64,000 nucleotides of DNA from Candidatus Bathyarchaeota archaeon. Its GTDB lineage: Archaea; Thermoproteota; Bathyarchaeia; Bathyarchaeales; Bathycorpusculaceae. Position numbers and translations under genes: made by a program. The notes under the pieces are model-generated. The model was not told the DNA's origin, searched no databases, and was given only the letters and a program-made list of their open reading frames with translations. The stretch lies in contig CAVRFW010000005.1 of the NCBI GenBank assembly GCA_963720565.1, forward strand, positions 64,001 to 128,000, read 5' to 3'. Shown here piece by piece: positions 1,336-33,682 of the stretch (position 1 is the first letter of the stretch; every line of letters begins with the position of its first letter).

Positions 1336-1414
1336 TGGCGGGCCCGCTGGGATTTGAACCCAGGACCTCCGGCTCCGCAGGCCGGTGTCATAATCCGTAC
1401 TAGACGACGAGCCC
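1336..1414 (-). tRNA. tRNA-Arg(GCG), CCA encoded
   Basis: Reverse complement GGGCTCG...CCGGC-CTGCGGA-GCCGG...GGGTTCAAATCCC...CGGGCCC-G-CCA folds as a cloverleaf. Confidence 0.95.
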
Positions 1415-1418
1415 CCAT
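1394..1418. repeat. att-like direct repeat copy 1 (tRNA-Arg 5' end/D-arm)
   Basis: tccgtactagacgacgagcccccat matches 13121-13145 at 22/25, with a 12-nt identical core. Confidence 0.75.
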
Positions 1419-1433
1419 GGATGGACTATGGTA

Positions 1434-1863
1434 CTAACTTCCTAAATATGAAGTTTTTAGTTTTCGGAACAGTTTTGCATCGTCGATTTCGGTGACGTAT
1501 TGGAATCCGGCTTCTATTAGCTGTGTGGCTTCCTCAATTGTCTTTGCTGCTTTGCAGATGTATTCTTCGTTTTGCGGTAGCGCAAGCAATTGAGTATAGC
1601 GCAGGGTCGTTTTTAGGTTTCTGTGCCCGAGGAGTTTTTGGACGTACAGGATGTCTTTGGTTTTGGCGTATTCTGTGGTTGCTTTCCAGTGTCGAAGAAT
1701 GTGGAAGTGGATTTGAGCAGCCTGGGGTTTTGGAGTTTGAATGCCGTTCGTTTCCTCCGTTTTCTAAATGTCCTTTCCACGTTTGTGATCGAGTTGTAAT
1801 TCCAAAGTTTGTCTGATTGGCGCGGTTGTGCTGCGAGCATTTTCATCATACGCTAATTGCTCT
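1434..1863 (-). pseudogene. Tyrosine recombinase/integrase, C-terminal remnant
   Basis: Manual translation: ...RKRTAFKLQNPRLLK/(frameshift ~1712)IHFHILRHWKATTEYAKTKDILYVQKLLGHRNLKTTLRYTQL...*; HxxRH, LLGH and catalytic Tyr present, N-terminal half absent. Confidence 0.88.
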
Positions 1864-2073
1864 GCGCGCGCCTATAGGAACGTAAAGAAGCCAGCCTGGG
1901 CTGCGAGCTTTAGCTCAACTGTTCTCATAAGACTTAGCTTATGAAGTCAGAATAGACATGGCGTCTATGATGATATCACGTCAGTATGAAGGGATTTCGG
2001 TTAGGTTCTGTTTTCCCAAGATGATTTGACATTAGATTGCATTCTGAGGCGCCACACAAGAAAATAGCACGCG

Positions 2074-2166
2074 CTATTTTTTGACCTTCTTGTGTGCTGC
2101 ATAGCTTCTTAGATGATACCACAACAGCTTGTCATCTTCAGCTATTTCCCTTTTTTCTTTCACCAT
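2074..2166 (-). CDS. Putative 30-aa small protein (MVKEKREIAEDDKLLWYHLRSYAAHKKVKK)
   Basis: ATG-to-TAG ORF; stop abuts a CGCG motif; no recognisable family. Confidence 0.3.
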   Translation of the reverse strand: MVKEKREIAEDDKLLWYHLRSYAAHKKVKK

Positions 2167-2292
2167 TATTTACGACCAAGTGTCTTTCAACACAAGCGAG
2201 ATAGAAATGGAAAAATTGTAGATCGCGCGCGTAGGGTTTCAACACGATAAGAGGCCGCGGTTACTTATCCAGGGTCATTTTTGCTTTTGAAG

Positions 2293-2701
2293 TTATTCGC
2301 TTTTTGCCTGCTTTGTATCGTGAAGTGTATGATGCTGAGTCGGGGGTTTTATTTCGTCTTTGTTTGCCCCCTTCTCTAGAAGCTCCCGAATACGTTTTAA
2401 CTCAGCCAAAATTTGAAGATCAACATTTTCTGAAGCTGATGACGGTCTTCTCTGACGGTACTTCTCGGGGATATTCTCTTCGGGGGCGGTCTTCTGTTCT
2501 TGGCGGTCTATTCTTAACCCAGCACTCTGCGCAGTAGACAGGGCGATCTCCTGTTGGCTGGAATGGAACTTCACATTCCTTACCGCAGTCAGCGCAAACG
2601 CTTTTATGCATCTCTCTGGAGCTGCGATCGAAACCTTGCCTACCTCTGGGACCGTGGGAACGATCAGAACTTCGCCTCACTTTATAACCCATTTTGTTCA
2701 C
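2293..2701 (-). CDS. CxxC-x17-CxxC domain protein (probable frameshift ~2455 joining two ORFs)
   Basis: CADC-x17-CAEC with 'EVPFQPTGDRPVYC' and RG-rich flanks; overlapping frame gives a helical tail 'LQILAELKRIRELLE'. Confidence 0.8.
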
Positions 2702-2780
2702 TCCTTTTTTCTTAGGTACACCTAGAAGCTAGCTATCCTTTAAGACTTTGTTAAAACGCGCGCTATTAACGTATGAAGCC

Positions 2781-3341
2781 TTATTCGTAGAAAATGAGGT
2801 TTTGCTCCTCCAACATTACGTGAAGCTTACGCACTGAATCATAAACGTCCTGTTCCTTCTTCGCCCCAGTACAAACAAGGCTCCCGCTCGCGAACACCAG
2901 TATAACCACCTTAGGCTCAGTCATCCGGTAAATCAAACCTGGAAACTGTTCCGGTTCATACATGCAGCTTCCAAGCACAGTCACAGCCTTCTCCAAATCA
3001 ACATTTCCACCCAGACTTGCGGAAGCAACAATGTTCACGACCTCGAAGTCCGGCTTGCCGAGGACTATTATTCCACATTTCTTCAGTTCCTTGACAACTT
3101 TCATAACCGCTCCTCGCGCTTCTTTCCCTGACTTCGCGCCAGTACAAACCATCTTTCCAGTGCTAAAAATTAAAATACCCGTTTTAGGCCTCTTCAACCT
3201 GAAAACTAGCCCAGGAAACTGTTCAGGGCGATATTCCACGCCGGGGTATCCTTTCACAACAGCGTTCAAGTCAATTTTCTGGTTCAGACTTGAACAGGCA
3301 ACAACGTTCTGAATGCTTATTACGGCTTCCGTCTTCGGCAT
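2781..3341 (-). CDS. tbp: TATA-box-binding protein
   Basis: Two repeats YRPEQFPGLVFR / YEPEQFPGLIYR, NVVA/NIVA, GKMVCTGAK. Confidence 0.97.
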   Translation of the reverse strand: MPKTEAVISIQNVVACSSLNQKIDLNAVVKGYPGVEYRPEQFPGLVFRLKRPKTGILIFSTGKMVCTGAKSGKEARGAVMKVVKELKKCGIIVLGKPDFEVVNIVASASLGGNVDLEKAVTVLGSCMYEPEQFPGLIYRMTEPKVVILVFASGSLVCTGAKKEQDVYDSVRKLHVMLEEQNLIFYE

Positions 3342-3482
3342 TTGACACCAGCCTTATAGTGTAGGAGATGCTTAAATAGCCTCTATCAGCGTGTTTGGAA
3401 AATGGAAAGGACTTAATGCGCGCGCTTAAATCTATTGAGAAAGAAGCTCTATTTAGGCAGATTTTGACAATTTACCCATGAA

Positions 3483-3677
3483 TTAGCGCACTTTTCGGTA
3501 TCGTTCTTTCTTGAACTGCAGAGTGAAACTGTGTTTTCCCTGCCTTGAGTAGTCTCTGAACTTGGTTTTGCATTTGTCACATATGTAGGCTTTAACGGTA
3601 AACTGACTGAAATGCCATTTTTTGTCGGGTTTAACAATTTCAGTCTGACAGTTCGGACATTTTGTCACAGCAATCAA
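3483..3677 (-). CDS. Small zinc-ribbon protein, Cren7-like chromatin protein candidate
   Basis: CPNC...KPDKKW...VKAYICDKCKTKFR, basic, 64 aa. Confidence 0.6.
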   Translation of the reverse strand: MIAVTKCPNCQTEIVKPDKKWHFSQFTVKAYICDKCKTKFRDYSRQGKHSFTLQFKKERYRKVR

Positions 3678-3836
3678 GATTTGATTACGTCTTTTTTCAA
3701 TTTAAGATTTTGTGGTGCTAGGGGGCGAAGAGCGCGATTGATCGTCCGTCAGGAACCTGAAGCAATTTGATAGAAATTGCGGCAGCAATATTAGGAGCAA
3801 GAGGTTGTTAATGAATAGACGTGAGGAGGGAATTAT

Positions 3837-5492
3837 GTGGCTTATTTAACGCAAACTCAAAGTGGTCAACCTGTGCTTATTTTGAAGGAGGGGACCTCTC
3901 GAAGCAGAGGGAAAGAGGCCCAAAGAAACAATATTATGGCAGCTCGAGTGATAGGGGAAGTTTTGAAGACAACACTTGGGCCGCGAGGCATGGACAAGAT
4001 GCTCGTTGACAGTTTAGGCGACATAACAATAACAAACGATGGGGCAGCAATTCTAAAGGAAATAGATGTAGAGCATCCAGCGGCGAAAATGATGGTAGAA
4101 ATCGCCAAAACTCAGGATGACATGGTTGGTGATGGAACAACAACAGCCGTGGTTTTGGCTAGCGAATTTCTCAAGAAAGCAGAAGAACTGTTGGACCAGA
4201 ACATTCACCCAACCATACTTGTGAGTGGATACCGCAAAGCAGCCCAGAAAGCCATCGAAATCATAGAGAAGAACGCGGTGCCCATCGACGTCGAAGATCG
4301 AAAAATGATGATGAAAGTTGCTTTAACGTCCATGGGGAGCAAAGCCGTGGGCAGCGCTAAAGAGCGCTTTGCGGAAATAGCCATAGACGCCGTCAAGCAA
4401 ATCGCCGAGAAACGCGGAGACAAGATGATTGCAGACATAGACAATATTCAGCTTGTAAAGAAAACCGGTAAGAGTGTTCTCGAGTCCCAGCTAATTAGTG
4501 GAATAATCATTGACAAAGAAGTTGTCCATCCAGGGATGCCCAAGAAAAAGGAGAACTCGAAAATTGCACTCGTAAATTCTGCATTGGAGATTGAGAAAAC
4601 CGAGATGAGCGCAGAAATTCGTATACGTGATCCGAACCAGATGAAAGCGTTCCTAGACCAAGAGGACAGCATGCTCAAAGACATGGTAAACAAGATCAAA
4701 GCCTCCGGAGCAGACATCGTCTTCTGCCAGAAAGGCATAGACGATATGGTTCAACACTACCTATCGCAAGAGGGCATAATGGCTGCTAGACGAATCAAGG
4801 AGTCAGATATGGAAAAGCTCGCGAGAGCAACTGGTGGAAGAGTAACCTCTAACTTGGACGATTTGAAAGCCGAAGACTTGGGCTTTGCCGGTTTAGTGGA
4901 AGAGCGCAAGATCAGCGAAGACAAAATGATCTTCGTTGAAAAATGCAAAGATCCACATTCGGTGGCCATACTCATACGAGCAGGGCTTGAAAGAATGGTG
5001 GACGAAGCCGAAAGAGCAATAATCGACGCGCTGTCAGTAGTCTCAGACGTCACAGAAAACAATAAAATAGTCGCTGGTGGTGGAGCAGTAGAAATCGAAG
5101 TAGCAAAAGAACTGCGCAGATACGCTAACAAAGTCGGAGGCAGGGAACAACTCGCTGTAGAAGCATTTGCAGACGCAATGGAAATAATACCGAGAGCACT
5201 CACAGAAAACGCGGGATTCCAGCCAATAGACGTGCTAATCGATCTGAGAACAGCACACGATAAAGAAGACGGTAAATACAAAGGCTTAAACGTATTCACT
5301 GGAAAAGTCCAGAACAGTCTCGAAAACGGGGTTGTCGAACCACTCGTTGTTAAAACACAAGCTATAAAATCGGCAGTCGAATCCGCAACGATGATACTGC
5401 GAATAGACGACGTAATAACATCCAAAGCACCCAAAGGCGGACCAAGAGGTCCAGGTGGCGGAATGGGCGGCGGCCCCGAAGGGGAAGAATAG
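3837..5492 (+). CDS. ths: Thermosome (group II chaperonin) subunit
   Basis: [26 protein letters not shown], Gly-rich tail. Confidence 0.97.
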
Positions 5493-5660
5493 ACACCCTA
5501 ATTCCTTTATTGTAATAGCAACGTATACTGCTCTGAGGTTAGAGCACTGTGAGAGACGCAGAAGAAAAATATAGCATCTGGTAACAACCCGGAGAAAACT
5601 GAATTTTCTAAATAACAGAGTCAATTCTCGTGGTTGTTAACACGTTCTCTAACACTGTGG

Positions 5661-7301
5661 TTACATACCGCCGTAACCACCCCCTGGCATTCCGCCAGGA
5701 GGCATAGGCGGAGCTTTCATCTTGCCAGAGGCGATGACGTCATCAACCCTCAGTATCATTGTGGTGGCTTCAGTAGCGGATTTGATTGTCTGTTTCTTAA
5801 CAGCCAAGGGCTCGTAAACTTCGAGTTCTCTCATGTCTCTGATTTTGCCTTCTAAGACGTCAACGCCTGCCCATTTTTCGCCCTTCTCATGGCGGCTCCT
5901 AAGCTCTAACAGAAGATCTATGGGATCAAGACCTGCATTTTCACCCAACGTCAACGGCACAATTTCCATAGCCTCGCCGAAACTCCGAACAGCAAGTTGC
6001 TCCCTGCCCGGTAGAGTTTCAGCATAACCCCTAAGTGCTCTAGCCACTTCCATTTCTGGGGCTCCCCCTCCCGCAACAATTTTGGGCACTTGAACAACAT
6101 CGCGGACTACACATAACGCGTCATGAACCGATCGTTCAGCTTCTTCAAGGAAGCGCTTGTCTGCACCTCGTATTAGAATAGCAACAGACCGCGGGTTCTT
6201 GCATCCTTCAATGAAAGTCAACTTATCATCGCCGATCTTCCTTTCCTCAACAACCTCTGCAAAGCCCAGGTCACTTCTTGAGAGCCCTTCTAAATTGGTA
6301 ACGGCCTTTCCGCCGGTTGCCATAGCTAGTTTCTTCACATCCGACTCCTTAACTCGTTGCACCGCCAAGACCCCCTTCCTAGCTAAGAAGTGCTGAACCA
6401 TATCGTCTATGCCTTTCTGGCAGAAAACGACATTAGCGCCTGAGGAAATTATCTTTTCAACCATTGCTTTGAGCATACCCTCCTCTTCCCGCAAGAAAGA
6501 CGACATCTGTTCTGGACGTTCAATGTTGATTTTAGTATCGAACTCGGTCTTCTTAATTTCAAGTGCACTTTCCAACAATGCTATCTTTGCCTTCTCGACC
6601 CGTTTGGGCATGCCTGAATGCACAACCTCCTTGTCAAGAACCACCCCTTCGATGAGCTCGGTTTCAGACATGGATTCACCGGGCTTCTTCTCCACCATAA
6701 TATCGTCCAAGTCTACCGTGAAGTCTTCTCCAACTTTTCTGGCCACATGCAAAACGGCTTCAACAGCTATTTTGGCAAGTTGCTCCTTGCTCTCAGACAC
6801 CAGCTTACTAGCCATAGAGGTAGCAGCAACCTTCTTCAAGAACTCCTTTCCTGTGGGGTTAATTGGAATCGCAATGTTTTCAAGGGTTTCAAGAGCTTTG
6901 TCAGCTGCTTTACTGTATCCTTCAACGATTACTGTGGGATGGACACCCTTGTTTAACAAGTCTTCAGCCTTTCCTAAGAGTTCACCGGCCAAAATGACTG
7001 ACGTTGTGGTTCCATCTCCCACTTCCGCATCTTGGGTCTTGGCGACTTCAACCATCATCTTAGCAGCAGGATGTTCAATATCCATCTTGTCAAGTATTGT
7101 TCTTCCATCACTCGTAATTATTACGTCACCGGAACTATCCACCAACATCTTATCCATTCCTTTGGGGCCTAACGCGCTTTTGACCGCTTCTGCTATCGTT
7201 TTTGCCGCCATAATGTTATTTCGTTGGACATCTCTCCCCGTAGATCTTTCCGACCCCTCCCTCATAATTAGAACAGGTACACCACCTGTTTGCGTAGACA
7301 A
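5661..7301 (-). CDS. ths: Thermosome (group II chaperonin) subunit, second paralog
   Basis: LGPKGMDKML, GDGTTTS, GGM tail; TTG start at 7301 behind GGAGG RBS. Confidence 0.97.
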   Translation of the reverse strand: MSTQTGGVPVLIMREGSERSTGRDVQRNNIMAAKTIAEAVKSALGPKGMDKMLVDSSGDVIITSDGRTILDKMDIEHPAAKMMVEVAKTQDAEVGDGTTTSVILAGELLGKAEDLLNKGVHPTVIVEGYSKAADKALETLENIAIPINPTGKEFLKKVAATSMASKLVSESKEQLAKIAVEAVLHVARKVGEDFTVDLDDIMVEKKPGESMSETELIEGVVLDKEVVHSGMPKRVEKAKIALLESALEIKKTEFDTKINIERPEQMSSFLREEEGMLKAMVEKIISSGANVVFCQKGIDDMVQHFLARKGVLAVQRVKESDVKKLAMATGGKAVTNLEGLSRSDLGFAEVVEERKIGDDKLTFIEGCKNPRSVAILIRGADKRFLEEAERSVHDALCVVRDVVQVPKIVAGGGAPEMEVARALRGYAETLPGREQLAVRSFGEAMEIVPLTLGENAGLDPIDLLLELRSRHEKGEKWAGVDVLEGKIRDMRELEVYEPLAVKKQTIKSATEATTMILRVDDVIASGKMKAPPMPPGGMPGGGYGGM

Positions 7302-7470
7302 ACAACTTCTCCTCCACGTACAATTACTATGACTTGACACAGTAAAAGGTTTCCCAAATTGCCTTTTTCATGACGTGGAAACCTAAGGAATCGTAACAAT
7401 CCAGTGAGAAACAAAAATATTGCATGAAAAAGTGAGTGAGCAAAAAATGTCACTATACCCACTGTATCAA

Positions 7471-8043
7471 CTATTTCACTGTTACTTTGTGCTTTTTAGG
7501 CGCGGGTGCAATCGTCTTCTTTGGGATGCAAACTTCAAGTAATCCGTCCCTGAATGTGGATTCGGCCTTCTCAGGGATTACTTCTTCTGGGAACGACAGC
7601 TGTTTGTAAACATGCGAGTAAGTGCGTTCTCTGACAACAAAGTTCTTCCCCTTGTCTTCCTTTTCAACATCTGTTTCAGCCGAGATTTCGATACCATCCT
7701 TCGTCAGCGCCACGTCGATCTTGTCTTTTGCTACGCCAGGCAGCTCAGCATGCACTACAAACATTTTTCCCTCATCAACCAAATCTACAGTTGCCTCACG
7801 GACCGGAACAACAGGCTCAGCCCTAATCCAATCCCACGGAAAAGCTATACTTTGAGGAAAAGCTATGCTTTCAATGAAATTTCTGCGAAAATTATCCATC
7901 AAATCGTCAAAGGTCGTCAGAACATGAACTGCAGGGATATGCTTAGCAGGAATATGTTTAGCAGGAAGATGTTTTATAGGTTTTACTGCGATTTCAGTTT
8001 TTGTGACCGCCTTCACCGGCGTCTTTTTTTCTTCTTTACTCAT
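7471..8043 (-). CDS. Hsp20/alpha-crystallin small heat-shock protein
   Basis: AELPGVAKDKI, RER, 'FRDGLLEVCIPK', C-terminal V-x-V motif; GAGGTGA RBS. Confidence 0.92.
   Translation of the reverse strand: MSKEEKKTPVKAVTKTEIAVKPIKHLPAKHIPAKHIPAVHVLTTFDDLMDNFRRNFIESIAFPQSIAFPWDWIRAEPVVPVREATVDLVDEGKMFVVHAELPGVAKDKIDVALTKDGIEISAETDVEKEDKGKNFVVRERTYSHVYKQLSFPEEVIPEKAESTFRDGLLEVCIPKKTIAPAPKKHKVTVK
7931..7975. repeat. 3 x 15-bp in-frame tandem repeat in Hsp20 (KHLPA-KHIPA-KHIPA)
   Basis: gcagggatatgctta / gcaggaatatgttta / gcaggaagatgtttt. Confidence 0.85.
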
Positions 8044-8261
8044 TTTTTTCACCTCAATTAATTTATTATTAGTATTCAGTCTTCCTTATTACGTCTGGAA
8101 AAGGAACTTTTTCAACGCCACATTCTGAAACGGGGGGACCTCAGCTATTAGCCCTCACGCGCTCATAGCCTTTAGGTGTTGAGGGCTGGCTGGCTTTCCC
8201 CTACTGCTTTTTCCCAAAGGGACTTAAAATGGAGTTATTTGGAGATAGCGGGGACGTGGGC

Positions 8262-8405
8262 TTACTCGTTTTTGGCAATCCATGTTTTTACTGCTTCTTC
8301 GACGGCTCGGGTTAAGTCGCCTTTTTTCCCGCTGAACCTCTCGATTGTTTTGAACCTGAGCTGTTTCTCCAGCTCGTCTGGAAGCTCCACGCATATACGA
8401 CCCAT
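8262..8405 (-). CDS. Ribbon-helix-helix (CopG/Arc-like) DNA-binding protein, 47 aa
   Basis: MGRICVELPDELEKQLRFKTIERFSGKKGDLTRAVEEAVKTWIAKNE; GGTGA RBS; below ORF-track cutoff. Confidence 0.7.
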   Translation of the reverse strand: MGRICVELPDELEKQLRFKTIERFSGKKGDLTRAVEEAVKTWIAKNE

Positions 8406-8778
8406 TTTTGTTCACCGATTTTTATTTTATCAAGTTTTTTGTGCACGTTTCGACGTGTCAGATGTTTTTCCAATAAGCGAATTGCCAGATACTAATTTTC
8501 ATGTTTGTTTTTGTAATCATTTTTATTCACCTTATTCGCTTATCCACATAATACATAATGTGCATACTTGCTTATAAGGGTATTGATTTATATGTTTACG
8601 CGTGGCGCGTTTATTGGTTTCCCTACGAGTTTAAGGAACTGTTAGAAGAGATTTACCGGAATTATATGGAAAGGAAATAGGTAGCTTGCTTACTCTTAAG
8701 ATTTTCAATCAAAAAGGACTAAATACTAAAGTTGATAACAGCAGTTAACACAGGCAACCGGAAACAAGTGAGAAAAGA

Positions 8779-9015
8779 TTGACGAAAGAATGCAAATTTT
8801 GCGGATGCGAGTTAACTGAGGAAGAAATCGAAAAATACGGTTGTCTGTCAACCGAGGAAGAGGGCATAAAAATTGACACCCCTATATGCCCCGTTTGCGC
8901 TCTGACCAAAACCAAATTGGGCAAGGCAGTACCTGAAGAGGAACGCGAGAAATTCCTAGAAGAGTGGATACGCAGAAAGGTACCACATGAACCACGCGCT
9001 CCAGCCAGTGAGTAA
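8779..9015 (+). CDS. Hypothetical zinc-binding protein
   Basis: CKFC...CPVC. Confidence 0.55.
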   Translation: MTKECKFCGCELTEEEIEKYGCLSTEEEGIKIDTPICPVCALTKTKLGKAVPEEEREKFLEEWIRRKVPHEPRAPASE

Positions 9016-9034
9016 AATTTTTAAAGCGTGCGCG

Positions 9035-9240
9035 ACATAGATAGTCGATTATTTCTTCAACGAACAAGACATAGGTAACAGTTAATCGCAAGTTTGAAGG
9101 GGGACTTTGACAAATGGTTCACTGTTTATGCGGCAAAGACGCTAACGTGTTCGAGAGCGGCAAGACGGAATGTATTGATTGCTACTTGAAGCGGAAAAAA
9201 AGGCTGTAAACGCGGATAGCTGTCCCGAAATCAGTCGCTT
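9035..9240 (+). repeat. ~205-bp module homologous to 23928-24128
   Basis: Visually alignable throughout, e.g. gttaatcgcaagtttga, acgctaacgtgttcga, ctgtaaacgcg. Confidence 0.85.
9114..9209 (+). CDS. 31-aa zinc-finger micro-protein, paralog 1
   Basis: MVHCLCGKDANVFESGKTECIDCYLKRKKRL; conserved with paralogs at 12532 and 24004. Confidence 0.8.
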   Translation: MVHCLCGKDANVFESGKTECIDCYLKRKKRL

Positions 9241-9338
9241 GCGCGCGCGATTCTGTTCAGCTATTATGTTTTTGCGTTTTTCAATGGGACATAAGTGTTA
9301 AACGGCAAACTAACTTAATGCACATTGGAGGGAATAAT

Positions 9339-9791
9339 GTGTATGAAGAGTTCATTGATAAACTGAAAAAGCGAAAAGAAGAGCGTCAAGAAGACTACGA
9401 TCGACTCAAAGGTATGATAGCAGGATTTCGTTTAACCAATTTCAACCAAACAGAAGAGAGCTTAGTTTTAATTGTTGAGTACGCAATGAACAGTTTCAAA
9501 AATCATCAGGATTCTATTGACGCTCTCAAGGAAGCAACAATCTACTCATTTCAAAGACTTGAAACCTTAGAAAAAGAAATGAAACAGTTGAGAGCCACCT
9601 ATGGCATAAAAGGTGTCGCGCACGCTGAAGAGGCAGGAGGCAAAACGAATGAGGGTGCGGGACAATTGAACAGTGGAAAGAAGAATACAGGAGGGGCAAT
9701 CAAAATTAAGACCAAAACAAAAAACAAACCGAAAAACGAAACAAAAAGCAAAACAAAAAACAAAGGAAAAAAGACGTGGAAGCAGCAGTAA
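9339..9791 (+). CDS. Hypothetical coiled-coil protein with Lys-rich tail
   Basis: ORF with GGAGG RBS before GTG; helical N-part, KTKTKNKPK tail. Confidence 0.55.
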   Translation: MYEEFIDKLKKRKEERQEDYDRLKGMIAGFRLTNFNQTEESLVLIVEYAMNSFKNHQDSIDALKEATIYSFQRLETLEKEMKQLRATYGIKGVAHAEEAGGKTNEGAGQLNSGKKNTGGAIKIKTKTKNKPKNETKSKTKNKGKKTWKQQ

Positions 9792-9830
9792 GAAGAATTA
9801 AAGAAAAATGAGCATAAAGAATAATTTCCT

Positions 9831-9950
9831 ATGACAATATTCTCTGAAGACCTGATAGACCAAATCAAAGAACTGCTTGAAAGAGTGGCAGACCCACACA
9901 TAGTTAAAACAAGAGTTAAGTTCTATTCTTTCAAGGAGTTCCTTCAATAA
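9831..9950 (+). CDS. Putative 39-aa protein (MTIFSEDLIDQIKELLERVADPHIV...)
   Basis: ATG-TAA ORF with amphipathic helix; no family recognised. Confidence 0.3.
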   Translation: MTIFSEDLIDQIKELLERVADPHIVKTRVKFYSFKEFLQ

Positions 9951-9985
9951 CAAGTTTATGTTGCCGTCTGCTCTCTAATTGTAGA

Positions 9986-10396
9986 GTGGTGATAAATGTG
10001 AACGCAAAGCAATTCTTCAGAATCGAAGTCAGCACAAGTTGGGGACATTTGATTAGGGAAAGGAAGACGCTGACTAAAGACGAAGAGAAAGTAAGAGAAG
10101 CAAGAAAGGCTTATCGTGATGGAATCAAAAAAGCATGGGACATTTACACCGAAGACAACATGATAGTAAAGGAAGCAAAGAAGACTCTTGACTCAGCAAT
10201 AGACGAAGCATACAAATCCTGCTTGCCCGAACATGGAGAGAGAATGGCACAAACAGAATATGAACAGGCAACCAAACTTTATTTCAAAACTTTATACAAA
10301 GTTCACCGCAAGTTTGCGGATACGATCGGACCAATTTGGGGTGTTTTCATGAAAGACATGGAGACTTCTCCAAGACTAACCAAGAAAAATACTTAG
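9986..10396 (+). CDS. Hypothetical helical protein
   Basis: 136-aa ORF, protein-like composition; start uncertain. Confidence 0.55.
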   Translation: MVINVNAKQFFRIEVSTSWGHLIRERKTLTKDEEKVREARKAYRDGIKKAWDIYTEDNMIVKEAKKTLDSAIDEAYKSCLPEHGERMAQTEYEQATKLYFKTLYKVHRKFADTIGPIWGVFMKDMETSPRLTKKNT

Positions 10397-10651
10397 AAGC
10401 TAAACCAAAACCCTATTCATTCTCCACAGACTCATTGTGCAAGACCATGCGACTTTCAATGGGTATCCGAAAATATCACTCTAAACTATATAGTGGGGGA
10501 AAACCTTCCCCTCAAAATAATTTCGGGAAAAAAGGATTCGCGAATGACATCTCCACCTAGCTTGGAGTTCATATCCCAGCGCCCCTATTGATTGTCAGTT
10601 GCTTTCCGAGATGACAAGTCTAAAGTATGAAATTGCCCGATAGATGTTCTT

Positions 10652-11425
10652 ATGAAAGAAAGAACCAAAACATTACTGATTCTGGTTGTGCTTCTCATAT
10701 GCTCGTTTCTCCCTGTCTTTACGGCATCGCCTTTTCCCCAACAAGACAGCTCACTTGTCATCAAAGAAGTCCTAATGAAGACCTCAGTCGCATACCTGTG
10801 GCTCAGCCCGATCGTACATGTCATTACTGTGGTACTGTTTATCGTTCTTTACCTTTATGGATCCCGAGTAGGCAGAATTGCCGACGTCTTTTTCGCCATT
10901 CTGTTTTTGTTCATTGCCTTCAGCAATCATATCGCTGTCACTGACACTTATGGACTTGCGGTGGTAACAGGAAACCTGGTTCCAATACTAATCGTAGGGC
11001 TCCTCTGGATTTGGGAGGTTTACAGACCTCAGAACAATTATGCTTTCGAGAGGCTTCCAGCGTGGAGATACTGGGTCTTGCCCTTTGCCTTCTTGGCTTT
11101 CTGGTCTCCAATAAACGCACAGCTAAACCCTGATTTCAATCCGTTGTTGCTTCTAAACTCTTCCTTCGGTGTAATGTACTGTCCCACAACACCAGTCATA
11201 ATCGCCCTACTTACTCTACTCTACCCAAGAGTCAACACAATTGTCCTCAGAGCAACCAGTTTTGTGGGATTAATAATGGGTCTGTTCAATGTCATGTCGT
11301 ATTTCATAATGCCAGGATATACCCTGTGGAATCTGGTTCTTCACACGCCACTCATATTTATTTCCCTGTACGGCTTGCTGATCCCAACCTTAGCAAAGAC
11401 TAACCTCTCGCGGCACGCTCGATAA
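10652..11425 (+). CDS. Hypothetical membrane protein
   Basis: Signal-like N-terminus and ~7 TM segments. Confidence 0.75.
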   Translation: MKERTKTLLILVVLLICSFLPVFTASPFPQQDSSLVIKEVLMKTSVAYLWLSPIVHVITVVLFIVLYLYGSRVGRIADVFFAILFLFIAFSNHIAVTDTYGLAVVTGNLVPILIVGLLWIWEVYRPQNNYAFERLPAWRYWVLPFAFLAFWSPINAQLNPDFNPLLLLNSSFGVMYCPTTPVIIALLTLLYPRVNTIVLRATSFVGLIMGLFNVMSYFIMPGYTLWNLVLHTPLIFISLYGLLIPTLAKTNLSRHAR

Positions 11426-11437
11426 CAGAAAGGGCGG

Positions 11438-11913
11438 TCATTTGGGCAAATCATTAGACTGTGCGCTCGTCTTCTTCTTGTTGTATGAGTACTGATAGTA
11501 CCCGTAGGAACTCATCATGACAAAGAAAGCAATCACAAGCATGCTTCCGTAGAGTCGCGACGTCAGGTATCCGTACCAGTTTAGTCCTATGCTGCCAATG
11601 AAGAGAAGTAACAGGTAGATGATGAGACCTGGCGGCCAGCGTTTGGGGTGATGAAGGGGTTTCTTTCTAGTTATCAATCTGTACCAGAGGTCGTAGACCA
11701 AGTAGATGATTATTGGCAGTTCAGCTAGCAAGCGTCCAGAGTCGTTGCCAAAGAGTAAGTTCAATATCCAAAGCAAAGCAAAAGGAATCAGCTGGGCACT
11801 AAATGCGATTCTCAACTTGAGCTCAAACTTCGAGAGTTCACGAGCACGCAGAAGATACACAACAAACAAGAAGGCATAGAAGACCAGTGCGAAGAAAACT
11901 ACAAGGTTGTCTA
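11438..11913 (-). pseudogene. Membrane protein, 5'-truncated at a (CG)n run
   Basis: Hydrophobic frame (LDNLVVFFALVFYAFLFVVYLLR...) extends to the GCGCGCG run at 11914-11920 with no ATG before an upstream stop. Confidence 0.55.
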
Positions 11914-11989
11914 GCGCGCGGTCGTCATTGTGTGCAAGTTGGAGCTACGCCTATTAGTGAGTGTGTTAGTGTGTGTTGCGGTGATTGGA

Positions 11990-12406
11990 ATGAGGGCTGG
12001 TTTGCTCCTATGTAGATATGAGAATGCAGAGGATTATTCTGTTGGCAGGCGGTTTCGCTTTGCTGTTGTTGATTTGGACAAAGGTAAGAATTATCCATTG
12101 AATTTTGTTTGTATGTTGCCGACGAAAATAGAAGCTGCTGGTAAGTCGCAAAGTGTCTTTCTGCAGATATTTGGAGACAAGAGCGTGGAGCAGGCTAGGG
12201 TATTGTTGACTGGGGCTTTGGAGACCGAGAGTGATCCTGAGGTTAAAGCGGAGATTGAAAGAAGGTTGAAGCTGCTTGAAGTTAAACCAATCAGTTAAAT
12301 CGAATGTAGCGCTTGCAGAAAATTGTTTCAGCTTGGGCGAGTGAGAGGGTTTAAGCAGAAATTCTGTCAAGAGTGTGTGAAGGAAAAGTTCGGCAGTCGT
12401 GAATGA
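11990..12406 (+). pseudogene. Hypothetical protein with C-terminal zinc finger, interrupted by in-frame TAA at 12296-12298
   Basis: Same frame continues IECSACRKLF...KFCQECVKEKFGSRE*; GGTGA RBS. Confidence 0.7.
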
Positions 12407-12531
12407 GAAAACCCTCTAACGCGCCAGAAAGCACATAGTAAAATTGTGGCCAAACCCTTGAAGACTTGGCTTTCGACATATGACAACACACACAAGATGA
12501 TTTAAAATGAGGCATTCAAGAACGTCCTATT

Positions 12532-12627
12532 ATGAACGAGAAGTGTAGTTGTGGTTCTTTCCCGAATGTTTGGGAAAACGGAAAACGCGAATGTTCAGAT
12601 TGCTATTTGAAGCGAATTAAAGGGTAG
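12532..12627 (+). CDS. 31-aa zinc-finger micro-protein, paralog 2
   Basis: MNEKCSCGSFPNVWENGKRECSDCYLKRIKG. Confidence 0.75.
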   Translation: MNEKCSCGSFPNVWENGKRECSDCYLKRIKG

Positions 12628-12767
12628 AATCTGAAAAGGGTTGTTCGGGGATTCTGAACCGTTTCGAGTGTGTAAGAGAGTTTTGTAATCCGTGTTTTAG
12701 ATTGCGGTTTGTTTCGGCGTTGAAAAATCATTAATATCGGTTTTAGTCCAACCAGAGAGGCTTCGAG

Positions 12768-12875
12768 ATGGAATGGAGAGTTTTAAACGAAGAATTAGTT
12801 GACTTTCTATCGTGCAAAAGAAAAAGGCGACTCGAAGTCAGGAGCGTCAGGCTTTTGGAAAAGCTAAGGAAATAG
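12768..12875 (+). CDS. Putative 35-aa basic protein (MEWRVLNEELVDFLSCKRKRRLEVRSVRLLEKLRK)
   Basis: GAGG RBS, ATG-TAG; stop overlaps a GCGCGCG run. Confidence 0.4.
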   Translation: MEWRVLNEELVDFLSCKRKRRLEVRSVRLLEKLRK

Positions 12876-13120
12876 CGCGCGGTTACACGTTACCTAGAAA
12901 AACATCCTGTTGATGCGTCAGGTTTGATTCATGTCGGAATGATACGCCTTGAAGTTGAAGCATACAAACCATTCTCAAAAAGCACGCGTGAAGAAACTCG
13001 ATAAACCTAAAGAAACAACGTATAATCGCCAATTTTTGGATTTATGCCAGAAATGGGAAAAAAGGAGAAAAGGGCTGCGGAGAAAACATTATGCTGGCGA
13101 TATCACCCAAGAATGGTCGG

Positions 13121-13145
13121 TCCGTACTAGACTACAGGCCCCCAT
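13121..13145 (-). repeat. att-like direct repeat copy 2: orphan tRNA 5' fragment GGGCCTGTAGTCTAGTACGGA
   Basis: 22/25 identity to 1394-1418; no anticodon or T arm follows. Confidence 0.75.
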
Positions 13146-13266
13146 ACTTTGAGAAGAAATAACTTGTGCTAAAGGATTTAAGGCTTGTTTATTGCGCGCT
13201 TGATGAGGTTATCTGATTTGCCTTCAGTCATCAGAGGTAACTTGAAAGCATCTTTCTGGCAGCATG

Positions 13267-14424
13267 CTATGGAACATAGGCTGAGTTGTTCCAGAAAATG
13301 TATTTGCTGTAGGTGGCGTCTAATGCCAATCCATCATCATATATTATGTCGAGATTGTTCGGGTATTGATCCATCCAATAGTCTAAGCTCGTGCATATTT
13401 CAAGCGAAAACGCATCTGCTTCCCATAACCCCCAGATCCTATCAGTGGGTCCTCTGAGACCGTACCCGTAGTCTTTCGGAAGGACAAAAGCAACCCTATC
13501 ACTGCTTCTCATGCTTCGGTCAGGATTGGCTTCTATGTACCGCCAGAACCGCTTCAAAGCATCAAAGTGTTCCTGTTGGAGAGTGCCATCCGTGTAGTCT
13601 TCATTGCTGTCAAAGACCAAAACGTACTTCGCGCCGCTATCATACGCCATGACAAGGTTCTCGTAGAGATGCTCGCCCGACGAGAGGTATGGAGGTTCGG
13701 TGTATTTCCAAGTTATCATAACACCCCACTCCCTGTTTTGAATTGTGGCTGCTCCCCTGCAGGCAGCTACATTTAACCTTCTGCTATAGTTAAGCGCGAA
13801 TTCTGCGAAGACAACATCATAGCCTGCTCTATAATCGAACCAGTAAAGGGCATAATCAGATGTGAAAGCTTGAACGCCTTCAATCTCGGTCGCATTCGAA
13901 GTAGAGCTCTCCAGCATTTTTTCCAAGTGAGCAACGAACTGGATGCTCGCGTCCGTATAGTTGTCTGCTTCGCGGACGATTCTATATGTCCATAAGTCCA
14001 GGTTCTTCCCGCCGACCTCGTCAAAAACATACAAACCCAAAAAACGGTCGCCCCATTTCACTTTCGCGTTTTCTATCCATTGTCTCGAAGGCTGAGTGGG
14101 AGGATCATGATCATCTGTGAACACGATAAACGATAATCCTTTATCATAAACGTACTGACAAAGGTCAACGAGTTTTGTCTCATTAAAAGTTATGCCAGTG
14201 CTGCCTATAACGAACAGGTTCGTGTATGAACTGACCTCGTCAATCAAAGCCTTAATCTCGACGACGTCATCGTAAGCCGCATCGATTCCAACGTAAAAAT
14301 CTGTGGACCGGTTTGGTCTTGGCTTTTCAGAGGCTAAAAAGAAATTCGCCACGAGAAGAGAAACAATTAGCAAAGATGACAGAAGAAGCAGGAAGTATCT
14401 GGGTTTCATTTGCACCTTAAACAA
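13267..14424 (-). CDS. Secreted/membrane-anchored hypothetical protein
   Basis: N-terminal hydrophobic anchor, 385-aa globular domain with 'GLYVFDEVGG'. Confidence 0.75.
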   Translation of the reverse strand: MFKVQMKPRYFLLLLSSLLIVSLLVANFFLASEKPRPNRSTDFYVGIDAAYDDVVEIKALIDEVSSYTNLFVIGSTGITFNETKLVDLCQYVYDKGLSFIVFTDDHDPPTQPSRQWIENAKVKWGDRFLGLYVFDEVGGKNLDLWTYRIVREADNYTDASIQFVAHLEKMLESSTSNATEIEGVQAFTSDYALYWFDYRAGYDVVFAEFALNYSRRLNVAACRGAATIQNREWGVMITWKYTEPPYLSSGEHLYENLVMAYDSGAKYVLVFDSNEDYTDGTLQQEHFDALKRFWRYIEANPDRSMRSSDRVAFVLPKDYGYGLRGPTDRIWGLWEADAFSLEICTSLDYWMDQYPNNLDIIYDDGLALDATYSKYIFWNNSAYVP

Positions 14425-14704: not shown

Positions 14705-14966
14705 TCTTGAATAGCTCGCTGATAGAAATGGCTTAACACAGCTAATAAGTCTTGAAGAGACAGCATACGCCACAGCGGCAGAAGCAGCGCGTCGCAACTA
14801 ACTACTTTCCTGAGAATTTTCGTCAAAAATAGGATACAGAGTTTCCGAATTTTTTAACTAAACTGCCTTTGCGCGGAAAAAATCCAATGAAGAGGAATAA
14901 TCCACAAACGTTAAATTCACAGCATTGGTAACTTTAACAAATTTCATTGCCAACAGAGCTGATACC

Positions 14967-16888
14967 ATGAAAGTAATCTCTAAAGAAGACTTCAAGGATT
15001 TTGTGAATGCGTTAATCAAAGATGATTCTAGGCACGTCATTGGGGTGAAAGCTCGGGGAAACAAATTCGCCTTCGGCACACTGGAGTCAGCGGATGAGCT
15101 TCGACTTGACTACGACGTTACGCTATTGCCTCCGAAGAAATACTTCTTTCCCCAACGTGAAACGCTTTTCACCTATGATCTTGCAGATGGTTTTTCAGCG
15201 AAAAACCCTGAAGACGCTAAACCCATGTTGATAATAGGTGTTCACCCTTATGACATTGTTGCCCTGCTTCACATGGATGAAATATTCAGGGATACAAAAT
15301 CTGATCCGTACTACTTCAAGAAAAGAGAGATCATCCATCATAATTGGTGTAAACATTCAGAAAATGTCCAAATGGAATTTCTCTTCCTTCATGGGCTGCA
15401 GCGTTATCGACTATGGTTATGACCTCATGCTTACTGATTTAGGCAATAGATACGGAATCAACGTTGGCTCTTCAAAAGGAGAAGCACTTCTACTGAAGTA
15501 CGCAAAAAACATCATGCCGGCGTTGGCACGTGATATCCAAATCGCAGGGCAGAAGAAACAAGAAGTATGGAAGATGGTCCAGCAGAAACTGGATTTTCCA
15601 GCTGAACTGATCCCAGAGTTGCTGGGAGCAAGCTACTCAAGAAGCGGATTCTGGGAGAGCCATTCCGAGAAATGCTTAGCTTGCGGATCTTGCGTGCTGG
15701 TTTGCCCAACGTGCTACTGCTTCGACGTGAAAGATAATCCAGATTTGACCTTGGAGCAGGGTGAAAGAATCAGGACTTGGGATGGTTGCCTGCTCGAAGA
15801 TTTCGCCAAAATAGCTTCAGGAGAAAATTTCCGTGCGACCAGACCAACCCGTTATCGCCACCGTTACTTCAAGAAGGGAAAATACCTGTTCGACAGGTTC
15901 GGCTTCGTCTCTTGCGTAGGATGCGGAAGATGCTCCTCGAACTGTCTTCCAGACATTGCAAACCCCGTTAACTTGTTCAACGACATGTACCATGAAAGCC
16001 AAAACAGCGGAATGCAAATGCCCTCTTCAGCCACCCAGCCAGACGTAAGCATCAGCACCGAAGGAAACATTGACTACGTACCCGAACTCGGAACCATAAT
16101 AAAGAAAGTGCCAATGACGGCCTACGAAACCTTGTTCGAGATTAGACTGGACGATGGTTCAGAGCTTGGACACAAACCAGGACAATTTGTTGAAGTTTCA
16201 GTCTTCGGCATTGGCGAAGCACCCATATCAATTTCATCGTCCCCAACAAAAAAGAAAACGTTTGAACTCTGTGTGCGGAAACTGGGAAACGTCACAACGA
16301 GAATGCATAATCTGAATGTTGGAGCCAAAGTTGGAATAAGAGGCCCGTTTGGCAACGGTTTCGACGTTGAATCCCTGAAAGGAAAAGACCTGCTATTCGT
16401 AGCAGGCGGTTTGGGGATAGCCCCACTAAGATCCCTGTTCAATTTTGTGTTAGACAGAAGAAAGGACTATGGACGTGTCACTCTTCTCTATGGCTGCAAA
16501 GAGCCAAAAGAAATGCTTTTCGGGGAAGAACTTGCCCTGCTCAGCTTCAAGAGATGATGTTGAATTCAAATCCACAGTAAACTGGTGCCCAGAAAACGAG
16601 TTGTGGTCAGGCAACATAGGCGTAATTACAACGCTCATTCCGCTAGTCGAATTTGACCCCGAAAAGACTACCGCGATACTGTGCGGTCCACCTGTAATGT
16701 ACAAATTCGTCATTGCAGAACTAAAGAACCGAAATGTGCCGGACGAGAACATCATCATGTCCCTCGAACGGAGAATGAAATGTGGTGTAGGCAAATGCGG
16801 GCACTGCCAAATCAACCAAATCTATGTCTGCAAGGATGGCCCCGTTTTCAACTATTCCAAGATTAAAGGCGTTCCGGAGGCGCTGTAA
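14967..16888 (+). CDS. NADP-coupled [NiFe]-hydrogenase/sulfhydrogenase beta (4Fe-4S) + gamma (FAD/NAD, 2Fe-2S) subunits, apparently fused; frameshifts ~15330 and ~16545
   Basis: CLACGSCVLVCPTC, CVGCGRCSSNC, RGPFGNGF, AGGLGIAPL, CGPP, MKCGVGKCGHC. Confidence 0.88.
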
Positions 16889-17625
16889 TGAAACCCAAAG
16901 TCGCATTCTTCGACTTCGCAGGCTGTGAGGGAGACCAACTTCAAGTAGCCAATCTAGAAGAAGAACTCCTGACTCTGCTGGGACAAGTTGAAGTCGTCAC
17001 CTTCAGAGAAGTCATGAAAGAGCACAACGACAACTATGAAATAGCTTTCATTGAAGGATCATGCACTCGACTGCAGGATGAAGATAGACTGAAACAGATC
17101 AGGAAGAACGCGAAAATCGTTGTCGCCATAGGCTCGTGTGCAGCTATTGGAGGCATTAATTCACTCAGAAACTACAAAGACCTAGAAGGCGTCAAGAAAA
17201 CCGTCTACGGAGAAAACGCAAAACTTTTCGATAGCTACGCAGCCAGACCGATAGACGCCATAATACCCGTAGACGCGTATGTTTATGGTTGCCCCATAGA
17301 CAGAGACGACTTTCTTCATGTAGTCAAATCGCTCTTGCTTGGAAAAAAACCTGAAACACCCACATACCCAGTCTGTGTTGAATGCAAGAAGAACGAAAAC
17401 ATATGCGCCTTTGAACGCGGCCAATTCTGTGTTGGACCAGTCACAAGGGCAGGCTGTAATTCCTGCTGCGTAAATGAAGGAACAATCTGTTGGGGCTGCC
17501 GAGGCTTTGTGGACAATCCAAACGAGAATGCCCACAAGGAAGTCTTGATAAAATACGGTCTCACAGTTGACGATGCAATAGGCAAGTTTAAGTTATACTT
17601 CGGTTGGCAGGAGGCAAAAAGATGA
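16888..17625 (+). CDS. [NiFe]-hydrogenase small (delta) subunit
   Basis: GCEGD, IEGS, GSCA, GCP, CVEC, CVGPVT, CWGCRG. Confidence 0.92.
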   Translation: MKPKVAFFDFAGCEGDQLQVANLEEELLTLLGQVEVVTFREVMKEHNDNYEIAFIEGSCTRLQDEDRLKQIRKNAKIVVAIGSCAAIGGINSLRNYKDLEGVKKTVYGENAKLFDSYAARPIDAIIPVDAYVYGCPIDRDDFLHVVKSLLLGKKPETPTYPVCVECKKNENICAFERGQFCVGPVTRAGCNSCCVNEGTICWGCRGFVDNPNENAHKEVLIKYGLTVDDAIGKFKLYFGWQEAKR

Positions 17626-32009: not shown

Positions 32010-33614
32010 CTAGCTTTTGGCCAAGGCTCTCTTCAAAGCCTCAATAACGTTCTGCCCTCCCATGGTCAACAGGTAAGGCCCCAGTTTCGGTCCTTGAGGA
32101 ACCCCCAAGAGAATCATATAGATAGTCTTGAAGAAAGCCCTTGGCTGTAACCCGTTTTCTTTTGCAGCGTTGAAAATCGCGTTTTGTATTTTATCTGGGC
32201 TTGTTTCAGTCTCCAGGGCTTCCATCAGAGCGGATAAGGCTCGCCTCTCTTCATTTGACAGACTTATCGGTGTTTCTTTGATTTCCTCAAAGTCTCGAAC
32301 CCAATTGAGCGCGTACTCGATTCTTCTGGCCAATTCAGCGCCAATCGCCCGATTCTCCAGCGGATATCCATAGCTCGCAAGTGTTTCTGAGATGAAGTCA
32401 TTCGCATTGTCTTTGGGAGCCATCTTGGCTAAAAACGCTAACAGATTGTAAGGCACATGCAAACTTGGTTTGGTAGGAGGCTTCATAACCCAACAATACT
32501 CATACAAGCCCCGCAGCTTCAAAAGCTCCTTTTCATCCTTAACTTGCTTCTTGCCAAAAAAAACATCCTCAAGATTATCTAACTCATTCATGTAAGAAGG
32601 AATATCGGAAACGTCAAGCGACCGCGTGCCCACAAAACGTTTCAGCATCAGTAAAAGCAAAGACTGAGGCGAACCATATTGGAACCAGACTTGCGGCGTG
32701 AAAACGTTTCCCGAAGACTTTGAAATTTTCCGCCCACCCTTGTCGAGAAACATCTCATATTTGGCATGAGAAGGCGGCTCGAAACACAGAATCTCCCGGC
32801 TAATCCGATCGTTTGTCCGTACAGAATCAGCAATATCTTTACCATAAGCTTCAAACCGAATATCAAACGCTTTCCAGCGAGCAGCAAATTCAACTTTCCA
32901 TGATAGTTTGCCCGCTCCAGCCAAAACACTTGCTTCCCCCTGATGACCGCAACCCTCAATCAGTTTACCTCTTATCTCTAAGCCTTCGCACTTGTAATGC
33001 ACCCTGTCTGTCTTTGGATCGAATTTCAGGGCTTTTGTGGTATATATTCGTCCGCATTCTTCACAAATCGGAAAGTAAGGCAAGACCTCTGTGTAACGTT
33101 CTTGTCCAACTTCTTCTTTAACAATTTCGCCAACCCTTTGGGCGTTTAACAGTATGGTGCGTATTTCCTCCCGCAACAACCCTTTATCATAAACTTGTTT
33201 TGCAGACATGTAATTGTACTCGATCCCACATTTGTCTAAAGCGTCAAGGAGAAGCGAACTCATGTGGCTTCCAAAGCTTTCGTGACACCCGAACGGGTCA
33301 GGAATGCTCGAAACTGGAAAGCCCAAGTACTTCTCAAGCGATTTCGGCAACCCTGCGGGAACCTTACGCAACCCATCCTTGTCATCGCAGAAAGCTACCA
33401 GCTCAGAATTAACCCCCGCCTCTTTCAAGGCAAGAGTCACGGCGTAGGATCGAACGGCGTCGCCTAAACTGCCGATGTGAGGAAAACCCGAAGCGCCAAG
33501 ACCCATCTCTGTCCTAACTCTATCTAAGCTCCGATTCAGTTTTCGCTCACGATCGATCACCTTCCGCGCCATCATGTCGTACCAAGTACCGTGACCGATT
33601 ACCTCTTCATTCAT
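32010..33614 (-). CDS. lysS: Lysyl-tRNA synthetase, class I
   Basis: GASGFPHIGS, KISKS, GPKLG. Confidence 0.95.
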   Translation of the reverse strand: MNEEVIGHGTWYDMMARKVIDRERKLNRSLDRVRTEMGLGASGFPHIGSLGDAVRSYAVTLALKEAGVNSELVAFCDDKDGLRKVPAGLPKSLEKYLGFPVSSIPDPFGCHESFGSHMSSLLLDALDKCGIEYNYMSAKQVYDKGLLREEIRTILLNAQRVGEIVKEEVGQERYTEVLPYFPICEECGRIYTTKALKFDPKTDRVHYKCEGLEIRGKLIEGCGHQGEASVLAGAGKLSWKVEFAARWKAFDIRFEAYGKDIADSVRTNDRISREILCFEPPSHAKYEMFLDKGGRKISKSSGNVFTPQVWFQYGSPQSLLLLMLKRFVGTRSLDVSDIPSYMNELDNLEDVFFGKKQVKDEKELLKLRGLYEYCWVMKPPTKPSLHVPYNLLAFLAKMAPKDNANDFISETLASYGYPLENRAIGAELARRIEYALNWVRDFEEIKETPISLSNEERRALSALMEALETETSPDKIQNAIFNAAKENGLQPRAFFKTIYMILLGVPQGPKLGPYLLTMGGQNVIEALKRALAKS

Positions 33615-33682
33615 GACGCTTAACCTCTCCACCAATGACTGCAGAATGAAATAGAAAAATGTTTAGAAAGAAAAGGTCGCAA

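Follow-up and report, generated by a model that had tools for sequence, protein, structure and literature searches.

The subject of this report is a stretch of 64,000 nucleotides (hereafter the window) from a Candidatus Bathyarchaeota archaeon, C5:64001-128000 of a 2.09-Mb genome that is a metagenome assembly and 89% complete, and in particular the 5' end of tRNA-Arg(GCG), which occurs in it twice. The two copies are very probably the junctions of a decayed integrative element whose integrase recombined in the D-loop of that tRNA. This judgement covers four points taken jointly: (i) the end of the element consists, as comparison with relatives indicates, of the integrase stop, a short spacer, tRNA nt 1-21, a 13-nt spacer and a 16-bp arm motif, (ii) strand exchange would take place within tRNA nt 10-20, (iii) the host-type promoter has remained with the orphan copy, and the intact tRNA now follows the integrase tail and (iv) the integrase in the window is no longer whole, the element being either a relic or served by an integrase from elsewhere. 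With recombination in the D-loop, the first bases of the tRNA and the DNA upstream of it would now come from the element. The element behaves as a tRNA-targeted integrative element with a 5' fragment; 5'/D-loop integration is well supported, and capture of the tRNA's promoter is plausible.

The original prediction, made from the letters of the window, started from a 25-nt direct repeat overlapping the 5' end of tRNA-Arg(GCG), and this is indeed present, with 22/25 identical bases (88%), at 1394-1418 and 13121-13145. The intact tRNA lies on the minus strand (1336..1414; ARAGORN; Rfam RF00005, 59.2 bits) and is read here as the gene reconstituted at the integrase-side junction. Within the repeat, the attachment core could be refined to 21 nt, that is, tRNA nt 1-21 from acceptor strand to D-loop, by means of the identity limits in 13 pairs of junctions and, for the orphan, a genome tRNA scan; its integrase-side copy is at 1394..1414 and the orphan, the displaced 5' fragment, at 13121..13141, both on the minus strand. 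The four further repeat bases ahead of the tRNA +1 are probably due to chance, because positions -1 to -4 mismatch in 10-11 of the 13 pairs. Read on the minus strand, the tRNA starts with GGGCTCGTC and the orphan with GGGCCTGTA, followed in both by GTCTAGTACGGA, and by inspection a single G-U occurs in the pairing of either start with the 3' acceptor strand, as had been predicted. The predicted TTAAAT box ahead of the orphan is also in place, at 13176-13181 (-40 to -35 relative to the orphan's first G), inside a TATA-like box, CTTAAATC (13175..13182, minus strand), which starts at -41 and scores at the 99th percentile, native boxes mostly starting at -41 to -47. Orphan and tRNA are on the same strand, orphan upstream, 11,727 bp apart, which is the fragment orientation and within the spacing (2-200 kb) that Islander accepts. 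The orphan is the sole 5' match to tRNA-Arg(GCG) outside called tRNA genes (all tRNA genes below 200 nt were scanned against the genome) and the only D-arm fragment that a fragment scan found in the window; its 18/21 match to tRNA nt 1-21 would be expected by chance 0.0007 times per window and 0.02 times per genome.

Directly upstream of the intact tRNA, on the same strand, stands the remnant of a tyrosine integrase (1434..1852, minus strand), which corresponds to residues 249-388 of an intact 388-aa homologue, with a frameshift near 1712-1727. It amounts to the last 140 of about 388 residues, is 88% identical over the last 97 aa (tblastn with P0003), and its frame ends in KLFRKLKTSYLGS, the stop being 19 nt before the tRNA. 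HxxR, H and Y are retained without the upstream catalytic R and K, and the NCBIfam model recomb_XerA_Arch matches it with an E-value of 3.6e-11, below cut-off. The N-terminal two-thirds of the integrase was not found anywhere in the window and no int(N) piece was found at the orphan end of the interval, so that, judged by its sequence, this copy cannot be whole. The integrase of the original prediction is a C-terminal remnant only. Intact homologues match PF00589, have an N-terminal zinc ribbon and, in the 28 compared, an invariant R-K-HxxR-H-Y set (R213, K237, H300, R303, H326, Y335); P0003 scores 92 bits against the archaeal XerA model NF040815, short of the cut-off of 220 that would make it a XerA. 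About 35 of 120 listed homologues (counted by eye) end in GPWSSLD, GPVV or similar, which are tRNA 5' ends read in frame. Full-length genes of the family adjoin the tRNA on the same strand after integration and are thus unsplit, as in the pNOB8 type; in some members only the last integrase codons run into the core, leaving the catalytic domain whole. Viral collections yielded one and three loci, none with the C-terminal tail, and gave no sign of a provirus. The D-stem sequence of the tRNA 5' end recurs in degenerate form 21 nt upstream (1423..1431, minus strand), probably as a binding site: in tail-bearing elements the repeat signal peaks at lag 21 with 5.4/10 identities, where the 23 other lags give 1.3-3.9.

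The position of homologous integrases was surveyed with an alignment of 28 tail-bearing proteins, which gave 123 loci. Once 18 distant matches had been left out, and with them 13 of the remaining 105 for want of a C-terminal match, there were 92 loci with 94 integrase ends, whose orientation to the tRNA was classed by BLAST against a tRNA library. In this set, which its query enriches for the tail and which includes near-copies (53 unique upstream sequences), 57 of 58 tail-bearing ends lie 39-64 nt before the 5' end of a same-strand tRNA, best matched to Arg(GCG) or Pro(GGG), and the remaining one is truncated. The expectation that such integrases should stand just upstream of tRNA 5' ends is thus borne out by all 57 that could be evaluated. 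Among the 36 tail-less ends, 12 face the 3' end of a tRNA in convergent orientation, 15 stand without a tRNA, three are truncated and six are in tandem, one of these being a mislabelled 3' piece. Thirty loci chosen with less bias, in most cases as the top match of their genome, comprise 13 convergent, 4 tandem (the window among them) and 13 without tRNA, and 5' entry is therefore a minority mode of the integrase family.

What ties the orphan to this family is the arm motif. In a spacing-free scan of the 38 tandem loci with at least 2.5 kb of upstream DNA, four have an orphan, a 20-21/21 copy of the first 21 nt of the tRNA, and 13 nt after all four stands GGHGANRTCNCCMGCA; the orphan of the window has the same motif in the same place, GGTGATATCGCCAGCA (13092..13107, minus strand), 16 bp long, 13 nt after the core and the sole exact match in the window. 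Genome-wide the arm motif gives nine exact matches against none for the reversed pattern, and 21 against one with one mismatch allowed. The chance figure for the pattern is optimistic, since the pattern was fitted with the window's variant in view. Orphan plus arm is found in 21/121 genomes of the order (a count that takes in the window's genome and two genomes already seen), the control giving 0. A 14-nt spacing holds in 21/21 D-arm sites, which is partly circular as many of these loci were fetched using that spacing; the spacing-free cases are the window, the four tandem loci and two Arg(TCG) orphans, and an Arg(CCG) orphan in G390 deviates. In two genomes (G229 and G373) the integrase tail, 5' fragment and arm stand joined.

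The crossover itself can be placed from the 13 junction pairs, which are 1.5-39.5 kb apart, include the window and leave out the Arg(GCG) pair of G416 for its 1-nt insertion. There is not a single mismatch at tRNA nt 10-20 in 13/13 pairs, and four single mismatches, three of them in the window, at nt 3-9; identity drops sharply ahead of +1 and at a limit between nt 20 and 26, mostly nt 21, and nt 16-18 differ between pairs, never within a pair. A tyrosine recombinase that requires identity only in the overlap would leave such a pattern. Since no stretch other than nt 10-20 is free of differences within paired junctions, the exchange would fall in the D-stem/D-loop.

Relatives provide the empty and filled states of such a site. 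In six of them lysS is upstream of tRNA-Arg(GCG), about 0.2 to 13 kb away, and appears to be its ancestral upstream neighbour; in the window lysS (32010..33635, minus strand; TIGR00467 above cut-off, synteny) is 18.9 kb beyond the orphan and 30.6 kb from the tRNA. G020 has the empty state, with lysS, promoter and whole tRNA. G416 is filled: about 150 bp after lysS comes a fragment with arm, and 15.6 kb further on are an integrase remnant and then the tRNA; the promoter of the fragment is very similar to that before the intact tRNA in G020. In G244, also filled, lysS is followed by a perfect 21-bp repeat around 19.06 kb, an intact integrase and the tRNA; L110 and L143 have lysS and then fragment plus arm, and G311 is likewise among the relatives with a filled state. 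The same-genus genomes G002 and G004 share the genes immediately downstream of lysS, which implies that the tRNA parted from lysS before this lineage split. Contigs from run X1 cross the left end (12622-13141) into the core and carry the flank at >90% identity. A contig of run X5 has this left end joined exactly at the core to different upstream sequence with another promoter, showing that the end moves as a unit.

Several findings weigh against this reading. Besides the bias of the survey, 34/38 tandem loci have no orphan within the available upstream DNA, C-terminal-only integrase remnants are also found at 3'-type sites, and the fragment scan found no tRNA fragment beside the window's lysS. 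The G+C content is flat (0.44 versus 0.446-0.458). The block of thermosome, Hsp20 and TATA-binding protein (TBP) genes between the junctions occurs shuffled in G002, where the surrounding region (C5:1-53,900) has no tRNA gene, arm motif, convincing fragment or integrase. Finally, the original prediction called for a relative in which the core continues directly into the sequence beyond 13145, and none turned up in 110 other genomes of the family (nine weak, short matches), with five further sequence handles or in runs X1-X5, whose contigs break at the core and hence are not proof of absence. Integration through the 5' end/D-arm is backed, for its part, by the arm motif at the orphan, the survey, the paired junctions and the empty and filled loci of relatives. 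A joint of 13141 to 1439 in X4 was tried as a circular form and rejected, there being no X4 depth at 13116-13151 on 12900-13420 and the 27 intervening letters matching the tail of an ordinary integrase-tRNA junction (L086).

These points leave room for a reading in which the junctions are genuine but 1415-13141 is not one unit: insertions and subsequent gene traffic would be stacked between lysS and the tRNA, with this interval as the innermost layer. The orphan's promoter would then have come from an older element, which is compatible with 5' integration and alters the boundaries and the cargo. We regard this as quite possible, if somewhat short of probable. The lysS-tRNA spacing, so much larger here than in relatives, is what it would predict, as are 86-96% copies of cargo pieces on other contigs, a degenerate 3'-type site inside the cargo (10539..10585, minus strand; a reversed tRNA T-arm-like piece with half an arm motif) and the shuffled genes without attachment (att) sites in G002, owing to which the cargo may not have arrived with the element. 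However, the TATA box of the orphan and its spacing resemble native tRNA promoters of this genome, the genes shared by G002 and G004 downstream of lysS place the departure of the tRNA before the lineage split, and the window has one D-arm fragment only. The boundaries of 1415-13141 are firm, and the cargo may have another origin.

How the intact tRNA is transcribed is a separate question. The original prediction held that the element must supply the promoter from inside the integrase 3' end, and support for this is moderate, native-like scores being matched by an internal control and the genome having a second tRNA-Arg(GCG) (G000:C1:3964-4042, 95% identical). There is a candidate box resembling a B recognition element (BRE) plus TATA box in the last integrase codons (K-T-S-Y-L; 1443..1460, minus strand), and we think it marginally probable that it drives the tRNA. 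The training set of both matrices (8-mer, and 14-mer including the BRE) consisted of the regions upstream of 32 tRNAs in this genome. With the 8-mer the window box scores 4.7 (90th percentile), the family median being 2.9, native promoters 4.5 and internal controls 0.8-2.5; with the 14-mer it scores 10.5 (99.9th percentile), the family 7.0, native promoters 6.0 and controls 3.4, 6.8 and 1.5. The best-scoring frame is an A-run at -45/-46. Two of these figures count against an internal promoter, the 8-mer family median being below native and one 14-mer coding control about equal to the family, so that A-rich codons can explain the score; the second tRNA gene counts against dependence on it in this genome. 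A sigma-70 promoter scan was discarded as inapplicable to archaea.

Archaea need tRNA-Arg(GCG) to read CGC/CGU codons. In ten genomes picked for having such junctions, Arg(GCG) matches number one in eight and two in two (intron-split copies may escape the pattern, and ARAGORN called a second Arg(gcg) in L058), and in 7/10 the single copy follows an integrase without its 5' part, where transcription must then start in or run through the remnant. The latter option, with the integrase-side tRNA transcribed by read-through from a promoter further upstream, as has been suggested for pTN3-like elements, or else silent, and the tail kept only as a recombinase binding site, we rate as possible, just below an even chance. 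It would account for a box that is non-consensus and, where the spacing is of the most frequent class, no more than about 21-28 nt ahead of +1, and the second tRNA-Arg(GCG) also counts in its favour. Against it stand the seven genomes whose sole match follows an incomplete integrase, and the long-spacing sequences of the window's clade (n=11), 82% of which score above the random 90th percentile versus 69% of native promoters.

The second tRNA-Arg(GCG) has TTTATATT at -35 and an integrase-like fragment on the opposite strand reading away from it; the same promoter type precedes the tRNA in G007, G021 and G373, and it is this type that the X5 contig joins to the left end (12622-13141). The A1 profile has no match in C1:1-6000, the integrase-like piece there resting on by-eye resemblance and on L025/L041, and the neighbour may be a split-type integrase that uses the same tRNA.

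Far less can be said for the alternative that the original prediction had itself raised, namely a split tRNA, whose 5' part would be the orphan and whose other part would lie elsewhere. The orphan does have its own TATA box and relatives do carry an intron in the D-loop of tRNA-Arg(GCG), but we consider this very unlikely, as no free copy of tRNA nt 22-45, 31-54 or 46-70 was found outside whole tRNA genes (the genome being 89% complete), RNA downstream of the orphan folds no better than shuffles (z 0.16) and fragments of the 3' type, which lie on the non-coding strand, are likewise followed by the arm motif. A chance repeat or assembly artefact, conceivable for a short repeat in a metagenome assembly, is scarcely credible given the expectation per window, the arm motif at its family position and the X1 contigs that cross the left end into the core.

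The preferred reading, an integrase that enters at the D-loop, gains interest from close relatives that enter at the other end of the tRNA. These 3' sisters share with the 5' clade the PF00589 family, the N-terminal zinc ribbon, the arm motif and an att site beside the integrase stop; they differ in converging on tRNA 3' ends, with a fragment that ends at the T-loop on the reverse strand and an arm 9-12 nt further on. Of 83 unique arm sites (51 with neither fragment type), 11 have a reversed T-loop fragment, and in 9/11 of these the motif stands 9-12 nt past the loop; in both modes the fragment extends about 21 nt from the first acceptor base. In the 12 loci of the 3' class the upstream repeat gives a weak signal, divided between lags 20-21 and 31-32. 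In a tree of 45 hand-picked rows (22 5', 14 3' and 9 without tRNA; quick search) a branch (SH-aLRT 95) separates off 21/22 5' rows, with 3' rows as their neighbours and the His-targeting row apart, and a single clade for all 5' rows was rejected (p-AU 1.5e-5); with distant outgroups, also by quick search, neither the root nor the direction of the 3'/5' switch was fixed. The 5' group would thus have arisen from, or given rise to, sisters that enter at the 3' end. The reverse complement of a tRNA 3' end would read almost like a 5' end, owing to the acceptor stem, and this dyad symmetry would let the same geometry work on either side of the tRNA. Tentatively, the family might have flipped between 3' and 5' entry at least twice with its att layout kept, the 5' clade writing a tRNA promoter into its last integrase codons and so capturing the host's only tRNA-Arg(GCG).

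Several loci met along the way deserve mention. One integrase of the family that has no tail (G000:C13:120329-120749; also L289 and L285) stops 47 bp short of the tRNA-His 5' end. Pairs of 5' fragments, 4-17.6 kb apart, are found at tRNA-Arg(CCG) and tRNA-Arg(TCG) in L206, L211 and L212, with integrases that are more distant or partial (26-56% to P0003). The D-loop intron of tRNA-Arg(GCG) in L013 (G001), L014 (G003) and L009 (G014) lies within the presumed crossover stretch, and in G014 the intron-bearing tRNA follows an integrase tail; such an intron could block integration or could have come in with an element. The G244 element carries a type I restriction-modification system (L250:2911-10215).

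The cargo between the junctions comprises a small treble-clef zinc-finger protein (2420..2701, minus strand; PF23477), an extra TBP gene (2781..3341, minus; PF00352) that has two other copies in the genome, on C3 and C13, two thermosome subunits (3837..5492, plus; 5661..7340, minus) and Hsp20 (7471..8052, minus), the last three from a family scan. TBP, the thermosome subunits, Hsp20 and the small cargo proteins all have paralogues elsewhere in the genome, and no conjugation genes were found among the scanned cargo proteins. The thermosome pair is present in G002 and G004, and not at that identity in the same-genus G001 or G003. The stretch 2781-8052, with its extra TBP, convergent thermosome pair and Hsp20, forms a chaperone/transcription block; at 5490-5855 the C-terminal peptide is echoed between the facing thermosome 3' ends and a pair of short frames that overlap. 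At 9698-9781 a lysine/threonine-rich tail is encoded by five to six A-rich units of 12 bp in tandem, and an X1 contig skips 10494-11399, beside the degenerate 3'-type site, as if a one-gene cassette had come and gone. At 1961-2052 (plus strand) there is a weak match to a C/D-box RNA (E 0.78, far below the gathering score), absent in 20 relatives and lying in a stretch deeply covered by one run's contigs. Just outside the orphan, at 14925-18932, is an operon that resembles a sulfhydrogenase in sequence, with a frame break near 15240-15420.

These findings have implications beyond one locus. Junctions of this kind are present in about one in six good genomes (21/121) of an order of abundant sediment archaea, and island finders restricted to 3' fragments would miss such elements. 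Since close relatives that share an arm motif enter at the 3' end in some cases and at the 5' end in others, the way in which one tRNA sub-site is exchanged for another can be tested on matched enzymes. A promoter in the integrase tail, if it is there, would make an element difficult to lose: an essential tRNA would depend on the end of the element, the remnant would be locked in place and the tRNA pushed tens of kb from lysS.

How does this compare with known systems, taken from the accessible portions of the sources cited here? Integration into the 5' half of a tRNA is less surprising than the original prediction had it, there being published precedents in pTN3, Caldiarchaeum, Klebsiella arg2 and Islander. 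Use of the 5' half is, according to a 2021 review, unique to pTN3-like integrases among archaea, the restored tRNA being expressed from the integrase promoter (PMC8371274); pTN3 itself shares 41 bp and has its integrase gene split (PMC5495485). pTN3-like elements and that of the window are alike in that att is the 5' part of the tRNA and the restored tRNA is severed from its own promoter (PMC8371274; PMC5495485). However, the pTN3 att reaches the anticodon and splits the integrase, whereas the present core measures 21 bp, with identity ending at nt 20-26, in the D-loop, and the gene is unsplit; the unsplit gene and the shorter core place this element outside the pTN3-like and SSV-type suicidal integrases. 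The best 15 of 869 plasmid matches included no pTN3 record.

Closer in layout are the insertion at tRNA-Thr(GGU) of Caldiarchaeum subterraneum, with a 5' fragment 1.8 kb upstream and an adjacent unsplit recombinase (PMC3293823), and CalSub-E1 at tRNA-Ser (PMC6563490), both of which have a 5' fragment upstream, a whole tRNA downstream and an unsplit same-strand recombinase beside it, and come from the same phylum-level neighbourhood. They are single cases, described in those portions without arm motif, crossover limits or a promoter argument, and are likened here by layout alone; 1/39 thaumarchaeal tRNA insertions was 5'-distal (PMC6563490). Klebsiella arg2 islands, with integrases of clade I.d, use the acceptor 5' strand, D-stem and D-loop (bioRxiv 10.1101/2020.11.02.365908), and thus also an arginine tRNA and a site through the D-loop with the element upstream; they are bacterial and likened by site alone. 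A whole tRNA and a displaced end fragment with the integrase between them are common to the pNOB8-type unsplit archaeal integrases (as described in PMC3293823) and to Islander islands, 159/3919 (about 4%) of which have a 5' fragment (PMC4383910); Islander crossover classes are only anticodon-loop and T-arm, whereas identity in the window stops at the D-loop. The accessible text of PMC10848311, PMC7253208 and PMC11705971 does not describe this integrase group, and a literature search that covered few subscription papers and no supplements gave no account of 5'-targeting integrases in Bathyarchaeia. The other 5' cases being isolated, what is new here is a large unsplit clade in Bathyarchaeia that enters the 5' ends of Arg, Pro and Gly tRNAs, with sisters that enter 3' ends in mirror-image geometry.

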